Both the position numbers and the translations under genes were made by a program. Below, piece by piece: positions 30,535-56,550 of a DNA stretch of 64,000 bases; within the stretch, counting starts at the first letter, position 1, and the number at the start of each line of letters is the position of its first letter. The stretch covers positions 1,019,817 to 1,083,816 of the forward strand of contig MU006090.1 of NCBI GenBank assembly GCA_010093705.1. Reading direction: 5' to 3'. Under the pieces are notes generated by a model that saw only the letters and a program-made list of their open reading frames with translations, ran no database searches and had not been told where the DNA came from. This DNA is from Patellaria atrata CBS 101060 (lineage: Eukaryota).

Positions 30535-32027
30535 ACTCCGTCGTTCTCATTCCACTCTCCTTTTGATGATTGTATGTTTCTATTACGTATGGTCCAAGAT
30601 TCCTGTCTGTTTCCAAAGGTATTAATCTCATTAGCGAATCCTCCAGAGGCTAGAGGAGGAGTTGCTGTCTTATTATATATCTCCAATTGGGTAGTTTTTG
30701 GATGAAAGGAGGTTGGTCGGCGCTCCTAGGGCATCTTTTCTTGATCTGTATGTTATCTGAGGAATTGCATCTTCAACCATACATTCTATGATACCGTTGG
30801 ATGAGGGTTTTGTGCTATCTGTCGATTCTTCCCGGTTCAGATATTGAGAGCCCGGTTTTCGGTCCGCTTTAGTTTCTCTCCTTTCGCCTTCTTGACAGCT
30901 CAAATACAGTCAGGTTTAACATATCTGTACGAGGAGAGTGTAACTGGGGAATGTGGCATTTCTTTTCTACAAGCAGGGGCATGTTAGCAATATATGGTAG
31001 ACATGTTCAGTCTAAGAACATTATCTGCTAATCATAAGCAATACGCGAACATAATATCCAATCGCAGAATATAATCTGTATCCTAAATTGCTACTCAAGG
31101 TACACTGGATATGTGTCCGAGAGAGTTAAGCTCCATGACCCCTCGCTTGTCAACTTGGTTACATTTCGGCGAGTTACTAACGCCATAGTATAGAAGTTGA
31201 CAGTGTATATAGGTGTAGTAGGCCTCCTTGGTTAGAAGAGAAGGCGGTAAAGCTACTAAACATAGCTGAATATGGATTACTACTATGCAAAGCAATCCTA
31301 ACAGGATGAACACTGGATCTGGTGCACCACCCATATTGAATTGTCTTCTATATACTTTGGTATCAACCCAAATCGGGCCTCAGCATTCGGCCTTCCCCGA
31401 CATGTACCGTACTCTGTACATGTGGCTGTAAAAGGTCATCCCACCGCCCTATCGTTTTCCCGGTTGCGGGTTGATTGACGATGCCCATTGTACTCAATAG
31501 AGACACCGCTTCCCTATATCGATCTCGTATTGAAGAAACAATCGACATCGACAACAAAGCATGCATGTCTCACGAAGGCGCCCTTTCAAATGCTTTACTC
31601 AATCAACGCCCTATAGCTTATACCAGTTATTATCATTCAATCTTTTCTTCCCACTATTATCGACACGATGAGTCTCGTCCTACAAGTTAAAGACTGCAAT
31701 ACATCTTTCAGCTACTTGGCATGGCTTGCAGCTGAGATCTAGAAGACTGCCACCACGCCAGCTTCACGAATTCGTAGTGTACGATATTTTCTTAATCTTC
31801 GCCTGTCTTTCGTGTTAAGATTCTCGAGTCTCTCCCATAGCGCGAGGTGACTTTCTTTCTATGTGAGTCTCACGTCTTCAGTCATGTCTTTTTTCTTGCC
31901 CCTAGTCAGAACGCTTGCGTGATGATAAATTATACTGCCCAGAAACCTTTTACCAATTTAAAGGAATTAACCCTATAGCTTCAAATTTTATATAATATTC
32001 TGTTTACCAAGCAATTGGTCTTTGACC

Positions 32028-33757
32028 ATGGCGCCTGTCCCTGCAATAATACGAATGCCACTCTCAGCTCGTTCGATAGGTGACCATACAGATATCCTCG
32101 CCCGAGCCTCAGTACTATTCCCTCTCCTCTCTACTTTCTTCGTTGGTACTCGTCTATGGGTCCGCAAGAGACCAAATGTTGGCTTGCGGGGAGACGACAT
32201 TTGGATATGCATCTCCCTTGTAGGTGGCCCTGTACCAACTATCTCTTCAGTCGCCAAAACTAAAGCATGCAATAGCTTTTCTCATGGGCGTTCTTCGCCA
32301 TGTACTTTACAAGTGAGCCATGTAGTACCGTACATTATGACTTGCAGACCTCTAACGATTTGTTTATAGCTGCCGAATTCATTGACTCGCGAGCAATCGC
32401 AGAACTACCTCTTCCGGAAGTCCAAAACTTGATACGGGTATAGAGTTGAATCCTTTGATGTGAAATAGAAAAGATTGACTTACAATGTCCAGCGCTATCT
32501 CGTACAAGAGATGCTCTACTTTGCGGGCCTCACATCCGTCAAAATATCCATCATCCTTTTCTACCTCCGCTCCTTCGGTACGACGAAGAAGACGAGATGG
32601 CTGATAATGGCCATGATGATGTTCGTTGTCGCATATGCCATAGCGCGTATCTTCTCTACGTTATTCCAATGTAGGCCTTTTAGTTACTTCTGGGACCGCA
32701 CCCAGCCGGGGACTTGTGTAAATTATTATGCCTTGTTGTTCAGTCACACTATCATCAATATGGTGACTGATGTGGTCCTCTTGGCCTTTCCGATGCCAAT
32801 CGTCTGGCAACTGCATATACCCCTGAGGCAAAAGGTTGCCATATGTGGTGTTTTCTGTGTGGGAGGGTTGTAAGTATCTCGTCTTTCTTGTTTTCTTCTT
32901 CAATAGGTTTTTCGTAATCAGTACTTTCTTGTATGTAGGACATTACCTCCCAACATCCATTACAATATTTCGAACCGTCCCAAAAACTCCTTATTGCAAG
33001 TTAGCCTTCGGACAGGACTTGAAACGTCCACCCATTGATCTTCGCATTCCTCAGTCACCATGTCAATGTATCCAGTATTTCCTTAAATCACCACCGGCGT
33101 CATTACAGAAATGACTAACGAACCTTATCCCTCAGAGCCTGTACCAGCGCCATCGTCCGCATCTGGGTGATCCAAAAAATCTTCACCGAAGACGTCGGCT
33201 CTGTCCTCAGTGACGACGCGGCCCCCAAGCTCGTCCTCTGCGGCGCCCTCGAATTCAACATCGGCCTCATATCCTCCTGTCTCCCCACGCTCCGGACGTC
33301 CCTGAAACGCGCCTCCCGTCTCCTGAACTTCCGCGCCTCGCCAAAGGCGTCCCAAACCGCATCGACGCCGTCCCCACGGTTGACGCTCGACACGATCACG
33401 CAACCCGGGACCGTGACGCTGAACGCTGAAAACGGGGATAGGGACGATAGTATGGCTGTGGGGACCGAAATCGATAGGGTGGGGAAGGGGGAGAGTAGGG
33501 TCGAGATGGTTGAGACACCGAAGCTGATGACGATGGAGCGGAAGATACAGATGGCGAAGCTGAATACGAAAGTTACCATTCAGGGCGCCGGGGAACTAGA
33601 TCTGCTGGAGACGCCTATCACGCCTGGGGCTAGCACAGGTGCGGCACGGGATTGGGAGTATAAGACGCGGAAGCAGAGTGCGGCGCAAGATGCGCTTGAC
33701 GGGGTGAGGGAAGTAGATGAGGGAGATGAGAAAAGCACGGTCGCTGGGGGAAGGTAG
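32028..33757 (+). CDS. PTH11-like (fungal rhodopsin-domain) 7-TM receptor without CFEM
   Basis: GDDIWICISL, KISIILFYLRSF, FQCRPFSYFWD..GTC, TDVVLLAFPMPIVWQL, EFNIGLISSCLPTLR; four introns (the last ~265 nt). Confidence 0.88.
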
Positions 33758-34150
33758 GAGGATTGTGAGATGAATGAGCTTGTTTTCAGGTTCTAGATAC
33801 CGAACTCTTTAACAGCATTATGAGTAACGTGTATAATGAGTTTCATATTATGATGTACACAAGAGGATTCTAGTTTTGGGGTGTGTAAAGGAATACAACG
33901 AACATGAGCTCGGGAAAAGGATACATTGAGATAGGTTTGGTATCATGTTCTGAAATTATTGCGATACTGAAATTTACAATGCTATAATGATATTCGTATT
34001 AGCCTCAATGCAAATATCAATTGGTTGATTAGATTGTAGGTAGGCCGCGGGTCGAGCGCACTCCAGAAAATGGAAGGGAGGTCCCTTTACTCGTATCACT
34101 CTTTCCAAACACAATTTATGAACAAACAAATCCGAGACTCCTTTCACTCA

Positions 34151-34304
34151 GGGCCTGTGGCATAGTGGTGGGAAAACCCCACCACACCGAATCGGGCCAA
34201 ATACAACAACACGTCCTGGGTTCGATCCTTGGGCTCCGCGGGAGCCAGCAGATGTACCACCCCCTCTTCGGAGGGGATGGGAACTGTTTTGCTTGTTTTT
34301 TTTT
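34151..34304 (+). ncRNA. Candidate Pol III-transcribed, tRNA-related structured ncRNA (not a canonical tRNA)
   Basis: A-box TGGCATAGTGG (34158), B-box GGTTCGATCC (34219-34228), four predicted helices including a cUUCGg tetraloop, T9 run at 34296-34304; no D stem or acceptor stem can be formed. Confidence 0.6.
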
Positions 34305-34742
34305 AACTTGTTTTTTATTCTTAAGGGCCTTGATTGATTAAATATATCTTTCTCTCTTTTTTGAATATTGGTTGCTTGTTATCACTTTTGAGGTTTGTGT
34401 CACTTGTAATTTTGCAATTTATTAGGAAAAGTGAAATAAGTGCTGAAGTCAGACCTCAAAGGGATCTCTGCATATAGAAAAACATTGTCAAATAGATATA
34501 CTGGAAATCTCAATCAACAATATGCTTTCTGTGTGCTTATATCACTTGCTAAAAATACCTTATCCCATTAGTAGTAATATAACTTACCATTTTATTATAT
34601 AGCTACAACATAAAACCGTCGACTTACCATTCAAGGGGCATTTGGTGGCCGACACAGTGGGAAATTATCTCTAGAGAAAGAAAGAAGATTTACAAAAAGA
34701 TAGAGAGGTAGTGATCACATACCTACTCAATCATACGTCGCC

Positions 34743-35882
34743 CTACCACTCATATGGCAGACTCACACTCCTAACGTTGTACGGGCCGCGAGGGTTATAT
34801 GTACCACGCTTCTTCATGATATGGCCATCTATGCAGCTCGTACCAGGGGCCACAGGCTGGAAAACAACTTTCCCGAAGTTGCATAGACCCCATTGCTTTT
34901 CTCCGTTGCAAATGAGCGCGCCATCAGGGGAACACGATGTATTACCACTGGTTGGTGGTGCTACAACGGGTGCAGAAGGTGTAGGCGCGGACGGCACAGG
35001 CGCGGCAGGAATTGAAGTTGCAGGAGCAGACGGAGCGGGAGTTGAAGCTGCCGGAGCTGAAGCCGCTGGAGCCGAAACTACACGAGTAGACATTGCAGGA
35101 GCCGAAGCTGCTGGAGCAGAGGTCGCGGGCATAGAAGTAGCCGGTACCGAAGGGGTAGGATTCCCAGCTCCTGGTGTTTGCGATGGAGCAGGAGCCGAAG
35201 GGCTTTCGCCAGTGGGGGCACCACATCCGAGAAGATCAGTTCCTAGATTTTCGGAAACAACTGTTTCGACCGAGTCGCCCGGGTTAGGGAAGACGACGTT
35301 GACCATCTCTGGGGTCTTACATTGGGTAGAGGCTATGTTGGCAACGAACATGTCAGGAAGCCTGTCAAAAGCGGAGTTACCGGAGCAACCACCAGTTACC
35401 TTGACAGGGGCGCAGTTCATGTACATCTCGCGATTTCCGATCTTGTTGAACCATGTCCACGCTAAGGTGTACTCACCGTTCGGCATATCATCCGGAATCT
35501 TGAACGAGTAAGAAGGCTTACCACCGGGACATCCTCCAATGATTGAATGGATGACCTTGAACTTGGATGAAGCGGTAGGTTCCTTATCCAAGGATAGAGA
35601 GATTTGACAGCTACCTCCACCATGTGCAGCCCCGCCTGCTATTTCGAGAGTTTGGTCTGATCCAGCAAGCATGTCATTCATTGATGTTACGGTGTAGACA
35701 CCAGCACGTTGTTTGCAGGGGAAATTACCACCGGAAAGTGGGGAGGTATCGAGACTATCTTGTCCATACGGTACTGGCTTTGACATCTTCATATGAGCGT
35801 GGGCCGGCATACCAAGAAGAGATATAAGACCTAACCAGAGGAGTCCCTTACCAAGCATCTTGCTGTAGCTAAAACGCGTCAT
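34743..35882 (-). CDS. AA11 lytic polysaccharide monooxygenase with P/A/S/T linker and C-terminal Cys-rich module
   Basis: Signal peptide ending AHA then His1 (HMKMSKPVPYG); FPCK, AHGGGSCQISL, WFNKIGNREMYMNCA; C-terminal CSPDGALIC..WGLCNFG..VAPGTSC. The exact 3' end could be altered by an unrecognised intron. Confidence 0.92.
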   Translation of the reverse strand: MTRFSYSKMLGKGLLWLGLISLLGMPAHAHMKMSKPVPYGQDSLDTSPLSGGNFPCKQRAGVYTVTSMNDMLAGSDQTLEIAGGAAHGGGSCQISLSLDKEPTASSKFKVIHSIIGGCPGGKPSYSFKIPDDMPNGEYTLAWTWFNKIGNREMYMNCAPVKVTGGCSGNSAFDRLPDMFVANIASTQCKTPEMVNVVFPNPGDSVETVVSENLGTDLLGCGAPTGESPSAPAPSQTPGAGNPTPSVPATSMPATSAPAASAPAMSTRVVSAPAASAPAASTPAPSAPATSIPAAPVPSAPTPSAPVVAPPTSGNTSCSPDGALICNGEKQWGLCNFGKVVFQPVAPGTSCIDGHIMKKRGTYNPRGPYNVRSVSLPYEW

Positions 35883-36645
35883 TGCGGTGGATGTGTAGAT
35901 GGTATAAGAATTTGCGTTGATAATTGTGATAGCCTTGGGTATATTGGGGAGTAAAAAGTATTTCAAGTATGTGATGAAGAATCTACTTGGCAAGGGGGGT
36001 GGTGTATCTGTTAAATACTGTTGCTGGAAAGCATTGTTTTTTGCGAGACTCGACCATAACAACATGAAGCAATAAACAATGTAAAACTAGAAAGAAACAA
36101 AGACGGAACTAATGGCATTGTTACTTTTTGTTAGGCTTAACAGGATCATGTGTGGGATAACCGTCAGCGGAGCACATTCTACAAAGAATAATTGCACTGC
36201 GAGTAGGATCTTCATGATGGAGTATTGTGTTGTATTGGGAGAGGGACCTCGGGTATTAGCGTCATTGATCATCTTGTGCTTGTATAGCTTACAGCGTTCT
36301 ACTTTGTATGTTAATGGATGGGTTTGATGAGTAGAGGTTGTCAAACTTCGGATGACAAAGACGTGATCGTCAAAGTAAACTATCACGTGACTCCATATTG
36401 CCAAGACATGGTATGAGCTTCACGGTTTGAACTTCCTCAACGCGACTTGCGTGACTGTTTCCATCTCTATTAACACGCGCCGACATTGAAATTTGAGCGC
36501 GTGATAATTGTCGCTATTTCACAAATTTTCCAAACCTATCACATTTTTCTTTAATTAGCTCAGTCCTAGTCACTAGTTTTAGTGAATGTGAACAGCTTCA
36601 ACTTCGGCTTATAATTTCTTTATTACCTTCGATCCATCTAGCACT

Positions 36646-38488
36646 ATGGCGAGAAAAAACCCACCACAAGCCTTCATGTCGAGCTACGCGCCCCGTCTGC
36701 GTCTCTACCAGAATTCCTTACTTGCGCCGGTAATTCAACCGCAAAATGTCATTCCGCAAGCCAGAACAACAAAACGAGGGACTACTGCAATCAACTATGC
36801 GGAAGACGGGTATGACGATGATTTCGACGATAGTGAGGGCCCCAGGAGGCCGACTGGATTGAGAAGTCTGAGGCGCGATGACTCGCAAACCGGAAAGCCT
36901 GGAAAAGACAATGAACTGGGAAAGGAGCTTACTGCACCAATAGATGTTCAGGGCATATGGCGAGACTGGATGGGAAAGCCAAAAAGAGCACTGTTAGTTG
37001 ATCCTGCTACCCACAATAAGGCCCAACTGGATGACCCTATGGGACGATCCTATACGGCTGCTGATGTCTAATAGAACCGAGAGTCAACTTCAAATCCAAC
37101 CTGCCCTCCCATTAACGTTAATACCTATCCGCATAGATCTAAATATCCCCTCATTCCGACCTGAAGCACCACTTCCCACCCCCGCCAATGCGCGCGAATT
37201 TGGCATTAACGAGGATTTGACAGCCTACAAGCAACCTGAAGCTACGCCAGAATTCAGGCTGAAGGATGCTTTTCTGTGGAACCTACATGAGGCGCTACTT
37301 ACGCCCGATCAATTTGCGAAAACATTCGTCGATGAGCTAGACTTCCCTAACGATCGCAAGGTCGTACTTGTTATGGAAATAGCCAAGCAAATAAGGACAC
37401 AGTTAGAAGAATACGCTGGTGTTGCACTACATCCTTTTTTCGATCCAGATAATAACGCAGTGACCGATGGACCTGCTGCCAAACCAGCCGGTGCTGCACT
37501 TTCACGGGGTGAATCCTCCACCCCAATGCCCACCAACGGGCTAACACCTGCGCCGACGAACGGCACAAAAGAAGTTTCTCCTATGCCAGGGGTGAACAGC
37601 GTTACCGCGACTGCGGAACCCGCGGCACCGCACGATATCCTCAATCCAGACGATACCTACCGCTGCATCATCAACCTAACCATCAACCTTCAAAACCACC
37701 TCTACAACGATAAGTTCGAGTGGTCACTCCTTCACCCACCAGGGCTCGCAGAACACTTTGCTAAAGTAACTTGTGCGGATCTCGGTCTATCAGGCGAATG
37801 GGTCGTCGCAATGACACACGCCATCTACGAAGCCGTTCTACGCGCAAAAAAGGACGTTTTCGACCAGCAATCTCTGCTCCCCGGCTCAGGCGAGGTAGAT
37901 AACGACGCGGCTGAGGGTGCCGAGGCCGGCTGGCGCTACGAACCCGAGCACCTTGCTGACGAATGGGAGCCCAAGGTCGAGATATTGTCAAAGGAAGAAA
38001 TCGAAAAGCGCGAAGGCGACCGCGAACGACAGATCCGACGGATGCGTAGAGAAACAGCCAGATTCTCAAGCACGGCGAACATCGCACCGCAGAGCGACTA
38101 CTTCAACCAACAGGTCGCAGAGGAGCAACCGATGGGTCGGGGCGAAAGGAGTAAGAAGAAGAAGCGGTTCAGGAGTTTGAGCCCGAGTGGAAGGGATACT
38201 CCGGATACTGGGTTCGGGGGCCAGGGTGGCGGGTTGCAGGAGTGGGAGAGGCAGAATTGGAGATGTGCGCACTGTAAGGTTTGGGGCTCGGCGGTCTGGG
38301 CTGTGAGAGACGGACCGTCGGGGGCGAGAGTAAGTTGGGATTTATTGTTCTGGTTATGTGGAATTTGTGCTGACTTTTTGATGCAGACCCTTTGCAACAA
38401 CTGTGGACTTTTGTATGAGAGAGACAAGAAGTTACCGCCTTGGAACAAGGACCTTTACAGTCATGACCGTGCGTTTGGGACGAGGTAA
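36646..38488 (+). CDS. SFH1: RSC chromatin-remodelling subunit Sfh1 (SNF5 family) with C-terminal GATA-type zinc finger
   Basis: TTAINYAED; LIPIRIDL, KDAFLWNLHE..TPDQFA, DKFEWSL, KREGDRERQIRRMRRET; CAHC-x20-CNNC; two introns. Confidence 0.92.
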
Positions 38489-56220: not shown

Positions 56221-56550
56221 TAGGAGTATATAGTACAGTAGGAGTATATAGTACAGTAGAAGTATATAGTACAGTAGGAGTATATAGTACAGTAGGAGTA
56301 TATAGTACAGTAGGAGTATATAGTACAGTAGGAGTATATAGTACAGTAGGAGTATNNNNNNNNNNNNNNNNNNNNNNNNNNNNNNNNNNNNNNNNNNNNN
56401 NNNNNNNNNNNNNNNNNNNNNNNNNNNNNNNNNNNNNNNNNNNNNNNNNNNNNNNAGTATATAGTACAGTAGGAGTATATAGTACAGTAGGAGTATATAG
56501 TACAGTAGGAGTATATAGTACAGTAGGAGTATATAGTACAGTAGGAGTAT
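56221..56550. repeat. 18-bp minisatellite (AGTATATAGTACAGTAGG)n spanning a 100-N assembly gap
   Basis: About 7 units before and about 5 after the N run (56356-56455); one G>A variant unit. Confidence 0.95.

Follow-up and report, generated by a model that had tools for sequence, protein, structure and literature searches.

The GC-rich island at 34151-34304 of the window, by which we mean the whole 64,000-nt stretch of Patellaria atrata CBS 101060 DNA analysed here, is one copy of a repeat that is dispersed in this fungal genome. Our best explanation, to which we assign a probability of roughly 0.6, is that the island is a copy of a low-copy, diverged and dispersed family of SINE-like retroposons in this dothideomycete. 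The reading draws on a short interspersed unit with internal Pol III promoter motifs and a terminator at its end, on a stem-loop tail that is common to other elements and is found more often than the heads, and on copies that are diverged and partly dead. We call the family SINE-like, rather than a proven SINE; its transcription, its retroposition and the existence of a partner element are what we infer from these features.

The element is 154 nt long by sequence inspection. Its GC content (55.8%) stands above that of the 64-kb window (47.2%) and far above that of the flanks (about 30%; 29-34% in the 200-nt bins directly downstream). The first-pass annotation, made from the letters of the DNA, had described a GC-rich island of about 150 nt in AT-rich DNA that starts like a tRNA and has an A box, a perfect B box and a T9 end, and it was right on all of these points. 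The 5′ end, on the forward strand, reads GGGCCTG-TGGCATAGTGG (34151-34168). It opens a tRNA-related head (34151-34238) in which the A-box-like word TGGCATAGTGG (34158-34168) and an exact B box, GGTTCGATCC (34219-34228), are spaced 50 nt apart. Some 60 nt past the end of the tRNA-like part comes the T9 run (34296-34304), where Pol III would be expected to terminate; it is one of just four A or T runs of at least 8 in the window. The B-box 10-mer alone is weak evidence, since with one mismatch allowed 3.87 matches are expected in the 64-kb window and two were found. Taken as a whole, TGGCNNAGTGG-N30-60-GGTTCGANNC has a single match in the window, against none in 100 shuffles; the A-box/B-box pair is beyond chance.

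The island had also been described as tRNA-like without being a cloverleaf, and as lacking the hallmarks of U1, U2, U4, U5 and U6, of SRP, of RNase P/MRP and of 5S RNA. Both statements stood up. ARAGORN finds no tRNA in the 64-kb window by default, and again none in the element region when introns are permitted and the cut-off is loosened to -ps80. At -ps70, a weak cloverleaf appears at 34150-34239, its 6-bp acceptor (GGGCCU/GGGCUC) including two G-U pairs; this is noise, because the same setting gives 191 'tRNAs' in the window. Rfam 15 has no match at gathering scores over the 64 kb, and E-value scans gave matches at the level of chance only, the tRNA model being absent even at E<=10 on 111 nt. 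A tRNA gene was rejected, as ARAGORN and the Rfam tRNA model (RF00005) both fail to match. SRP, RNase P/MRP and a C/D snoRNA had been considered from the sequence, and the Rfam scans led us to set them aside; none of the snRNAs, SRP, RNase P/MRP, 5S or snoRNAs has a gathering-score match in the window (Rfam 15).

The likeness to tRNA genes is thus partial. The 5′ end resembles an acceptor strand plus D loop, and a T-loop/B-box sequence and a T-run terminator are present, whereas a D stem, an anticodon arm and in-register acceptor pairing are not. The first 19 nt are identical at 17 positions to eukaryotic-type, intron-bearing tRNA-Ala(CGC) genes at three metagenome loci (L010, L025 and L075). 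Overall, 49 of 70 aligned positions agree with an environmental tRNA-Ala(CGC), with many gaps and at a locus picked by the same A/B-box pattern, which biases the comparison. Because the loci were selected by their boxes, a tRNA-Ala-like parent is no more than a lead.

Of the pairings proposed in the first-pass annotation, the two terminal ones are predicted here also, and the middle one is not favored. The 5′ stem-loop domain (34152-34198) has a 6-bp stem, GGCCUG/CGGGCC (34152-57/34193-98), around an 8-bp hairpin, GUGGUGGG/CCCACCAC (34165-72/34178-85). Computed over 34151-34199, it has a free energy of -26.9 kcal/mol (z = -2.9) and is both the minimum-energy and the centroid fold. An A/C-rich linker (34199-34218) is unpaired in the fold, and its sequence differs between paralogues at 34199-34212. 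The middle part, with a small GGCUCC/GGAGCC hairpin, folds no better than shuffles (z = -0.1). The tail module (34239-34295), the most repeated part of the element, contains a long imperfect hairpin at 34247-34293, about 47 nt in length with 17 bp and capped by a UUCG loop (34267-70); over 34247-34295 its z is -3.3, and none of 200 shuffles is equally stable. The fold of the whole element has z = -2.7.

The repeat came to light in X1 and X2, two DNA sequencing runs of one sample, both with the exact locus. That they are DNA is seen from contigs of 52-66 kb and from the lack of joints across the intron-bearing PTH11-like gene upstream; their main contigs have no differences from the window. Contigs were aligned on 31900-36200 at a likeness of at least 80%, so that copies less alike would be missed. 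The region drew 39 contigs from X1 and 31 from X2, and 35 of the 39 and 25 of the 31 are less than 99% alike. The 16 pieces that were listed, from a set with 56 more, all lie within 34124-34316, except for four main-contig pieces and one low-depth piece; the listed differences and loose ends all fall at 34162-34304. The genes flanking the element are single copy, as judged by the cover in X1 and X2.

Cover tells the same of both runs. Summed depth in X1 is flat at 468 over 31900-34059, rises to 1305 and then to 4200 (34204-34347), and returns to 427; the corresponding values in X2 are 337, 946, 3223 and 314. The depth of each paralogous X1 contig is about single-copy (438-471), which indicates separate loci and no collapsed repeat. 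The X1 main contig itself breaks within the element, at 34217/34224, which is how assemblies behave at repeats. No more than about 36 of the 39 X1 contigs are on the element. Those that differ from the window number two at 34162 and at least 10 at 34261: at least 10 have G at 34261, five have T at 34262, and five are without a base at 34277. The contig equivalents derived from X1 depth are about 4.7 at 34162, 6 at 34184, 8 at 34243, 15 at 34253-62 and 21 at 34277, figures that are rough, summed depth being a guide and not a copy number. The 3′-ward rise may come partly from contig breaks and from the clipping of diverged copies. There are many diverged copies with a common 3′ limit, and the tail is more abundant than the head.

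The single-copy surroundings deserve a brief description. The upstream gene, on the forward strand and intron-bearing, encodes a fungal rhodopsin domain typical of PTH11-type receptors (E = 4.6e-40), in agreement with its earlier label. The downstream gene, on the reverse strand, had been labeled AA11; it is LPMO-like with weak matches to AA9 and CBM19, so that label was not confirmed. Small extra cover is present at 35068-35211 and 35356-35499, in the Ala/Pro/Ser/Thr-rich linker of the LPMO-like gene, and a contig of depth 3.8 covers 35407-35473 in this linker, probably through low-complexity likeness. A SNF5-domain chromatin-remodelling gene follows at 36592-38488, some relatives of which have the Pfam GATA zinc finger PF00320. 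The part of its protein encoded at 37100-38485 is 100% identical to one dothideomycete NCBI protein and the next best is 69%, from which it seems that close relatives for covariation are not at hand. A run of 100 N at 56356-56455 marks an assembly gap in the window.

The copies are 80-95% alike to the element and differ by 5-20%, and they are of unequal extent. One paralogue has head and tail together, over 34141-34292, with 21 mismatches and four gaps, and is cut by its contig end. Another covers 34124-34217. Other paralogues, in long contigs, cover only 34177-34303, 34208-34298 or 34239-34304, and several have in common just the last 60-130 nt. At the 3′ side, the loose ends behind 34302, 34303 and 34304 lead into unlike flanks, which indicates that the common unit ends with the T run, the limit of likeness for most paralogues. 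A T-rich 15-nt unit beyond it (34302-34316), a tandem repeat of 34287-34301 at 87%, may belong to the tail; record 16, an X2 contig, is alike as far as 34316, which fits such a tandem duplicate. How far the unit extends on the 5′ side is uncertain. The 27 nt upstream of the element (34124-34150) are also matched by one paralogous contig, records 2 (X1) and 10 (X2) matching from 34124. By our own count, about five of the 10 mismatches of this copy must fall in 34124-34150, so the likeness there is weak.

Within the unit, loose ends before 34239 (two contigs) and before 34246 (three contigs) show the tail joined to other upstream sequences. These resemble each other, with agreements of 0.82 at 34239 and 0.7 at 34246. 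Joined as it is to differing upstream sequences, the tail is a module common to several element types, and its boundary at 34239 is the end of the tRNA-like part.

The family also shows decay. The B box is damaged in at least two to three copies: one has G34219>A, one has T34221>G, and two or three have TGTGTG for GGTTCG. The changes in X1 (12 transitions and 14 transversions) are not RIP-like. The window copy departs from the consensus at three places, four of about five contigs having C at 34176, five of about eight having G at 34243 and at least 10 having G at 34261. Some changes respect the predicted fold. In one paralogue, T34166>C together with A34184>G replaces U-A by C-G in the 8-bp hairpin, and two or three copies have A for G34194, which turns an outer-stem U-G into U-A if their 5′ strand is unchanged. 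These could reflect selection on the RNA fold, or chance among few copies.

How might such a unit spread? In the mechanism we propose, the internal A and B boxes in the tRNA-related head would recruit TFIIIC, transcription by Pol III would begin at 34151 or a few bases upstream of it and terminate in the T9 run, and the product would be about 150 nt long with oligo-U at its 3′ end. Its fold would consist of the 5′ stem-loop domain in place of a cloverleaf, the A/C-rich linker and the long 3′ hairpin. The hairpin and the U-rich end would be the part copied into new sites by the reverse transcriptase of a partner element, and the copying would often stop short of the 5′ end. SINEs of the classical, LINE-dependent sort carry an A-rich or simple-repeat tail. 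A sense-strand T run is unusual as a SINE tail and speaks against the retroposon reading, and an oligo-U-ended transcript would also need some way of being primed for copying. A further point against it is that the compensatory double change in one paralogue could mean selection on the RNA.

SINEs in fungi are poorly documented, and in the literature consulted we found no SINE of this lineage described. SINEBase defines a SINE as a short (<1 kb), interspersed, non-tandem repeat that Pol III transcribes from a promoter within the unit, and asks for 100 copies and for a tRNA identity of 60% or more across 60 nt or more (PMC3531059). The element is short, interspersed and non-tandem, its paralogous contigs being at single depth and alike only within 34124-34316. 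Its copies are far fewer than 100 as judged by a tail depth ratio of about 21-fold, a figure that misses copies less than 80% alike; a copy number well below 100 counts against full SINE membership. The closest described case is AfuSINE2 of Aspergillus fumigatus, which has a tRNA-related 5′ part with degenerate A and B boxes, a length of 140-493 bp, a low copy number and a tRNA-unrelated 3′ part that runs to an oligothymidine tract (PMC5063351). The element has this layout (a tRNA-related head with boxes and an unrelated 3′ part to oligo-T), and the length range, the low copy number and a filamentous ascomycete host agree also. The likeness is one of architecture and not of compared sequences, and the class of the host differs from that of this dothideomycete. 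AfuSINE2 members were reported to have target-site duplications of 4-14 bp (PMC5063351), whereas none is found at the window element. The Mg-SINE of Magnaporthe, of 472 bp and about 100 copies (as quoted in PMC5063351), has its 3′ end in common with the LINE MGL (PMC2104539). A tRNA-derived fungal SINE that mimics a LINE 3′ end, as this pair exemplifies, fits the multi-type tail and the 5′-shortened copies seen here; the difference is that the window element is a candidate SINE with a T-run end and a partner LINE that is hypothetical.

The first-pass annotation had left a choice between a functional RNA that derives from a tRNA and has a fold of its own, a milRNA precursor, and the head of a SINE. 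The SINE option gained from the many 80-95% copies on contigs of their own, and the case for a unique new Pol III ncRNA gene was weakened. For a SINE, many degenerate copies with target-site duplications had been expected; the degenerate copies are there, and the duplications are missing, at least from the window copy, the only one whose flanks were compared. The longest word common to both of its flanks is a 7-mer, AGGGCCT, and words as long or longer are common to them in 143 of 1000 shuffles. This word, which opens the element (34150-34156), recurs at 34324-34330, 20 nt past the T run, probably by chance.

Relatives are scarce outside the genome. The 64-kb window has no second copy, nor any match to the tail, and a 24-mer taken from the tail is nowhere matched exactly in the metagenome collection. 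The A-box/gap/B-box pattern recovered 106 metagenome loci, with a tRNA call in 58 of 107 ARAGORN output entries, and the loci without such a call are other tRNA-like repeats or coding DNA. Beyond the boxes these loci are unrelated to the element (nhmmer best E = 0.43; none to the tail at E<=10). The translated element, used as a protein query for spurious ORFs on other copies, produced no candidate. The pattern loci contain other units of some interest. L024, L029 and L043 have identical displayed stretches, with an A/B-box pair 52 nt apart at about 301-373 and no ARAGORN tRNA. Two of them are in contigs of 43 and 98 kb, and the unit is tRNA-like and non-cloverleaf, with a sequence unrelated to that of the window element. 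A group that includes L007, L013, L027, L032, L055 and L080 has a tRNA-like head and then a common body with GGGCAAGTTGTTCACACC; it looks like a eukaryotic tRNA-derived SINE family of those samples.

The abundance of the tail admits another explanation, which we consider unlikely: that 34239-34304 is the conserved end of a different mobile element, which could be a LINE (at its 3′ end), a chimeric retrocopy or something Helitron-like, and lies by a decayed tRNA fragment. The tail would then adjoin, or be fused to, a tRNA relic, and the A and B boxes would have no role. That three or more kinds of upstream sequence precede the tail, which is several times commoner than the head, suits this explanation, and chimeras of LINE 3′ parts with various RNAs, made by template switching, have been described in a fungus (PMC2104539). 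Against it, the repeated stretch here is at most about 190 nt, with single-copy cover before 34060 and after 34347, and no CTRR end or inverted terminal repeat is visible at the locus. Head and tail moreover occur together, in the same order, at one other locus at least (34141-34292). Finally, the junction at 34239 coincides with the tRNA-like end and the unit ends in a Pol III terminator.

The layout of the element brings to mind BC1 RNA, a tRNA-derived Pol III RNA of about 150 nt that is the source gene of the rodent ID elements, which are SINEs. The 5′ domain of BC1 forms a stem-loop and no cloverleaf, and a linker rich in purines or A leads on to a 3′ hairpin; the RNA is mammalian and has a known neuronal role, and BC1/ID and the window element are alike in architecture only. 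By analogy, the element could be a functional Pol III ncRNA gene whose RNA of about 150 nt has its own fold, the other copies being its retroposed or decayed offspring. We regard this as quite unlikely, and as very unlikely that the window copy is the live source gene of a functional BC1-like tRNA-derived RNA with its 5′ domain under selection. In favor of a gene, the B box of the window copy is exact and its terminator strong, its GC stays at 56% amid DNA of about 30% GC, and its two terminal domains fold better than shuffles. Its 5′ hairpin is kept through the double change in one paralogue, and U-G becomes U-A in two or three. The window copy, on the other hand, is not the family consensus at 34176, 34243 and 34261; the paralogues are 5-20% apart and some have lost the B box; and the metagenome and translated-element searches gave no relatives in other organisms. 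If true, a source gene here would be a first for filamentous fungi: a regulatory RNA of tRNA origin that was domesticated and gave rise to SINEs.

The repeat finding lowers the standing of the functional-RNA reading and, likewise, that of a milRNA precursor, in which the 3′ hairpin would be diced after Pol III transcription. Some Neurospora milRNAs depend on Pol III, and a hairpin of about 47 nt and 17 bp (z = -3.3) downstream of Pol III promoter motifs would be in keeping with such a precursor; we nevertheless hold it to be highly improbable, the stem being short and GC-rich with a UUCG loop, and the repeat nature being explained without it. That the island is just a solitary, decayed tRNA pseudogene which happens to have a hairpin downstream is scarcely credible; the first-pass annotation had allowed for a pseudogene. 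The 5′ 19 nt and the T-arm region are tRNA-like, but the recurrence of head and tail at another locus and of the tail in at least 10 contigs contradicts it, and the GC content and the folds are far above those of the flanks.

In closing, we return to the SINE-like retroposon family as the reading we prefer. For annotation, it means that the island is better masked as a repeat than listed as a novel ncRNA gene. The biology of fungal retroposons would gain a clean example of a fungal SINE from a family this compact, with units of about 150 nt that bring their own terminator and stem-loop tail, and also a way into the question of which reverse transcriptase moves such elements.
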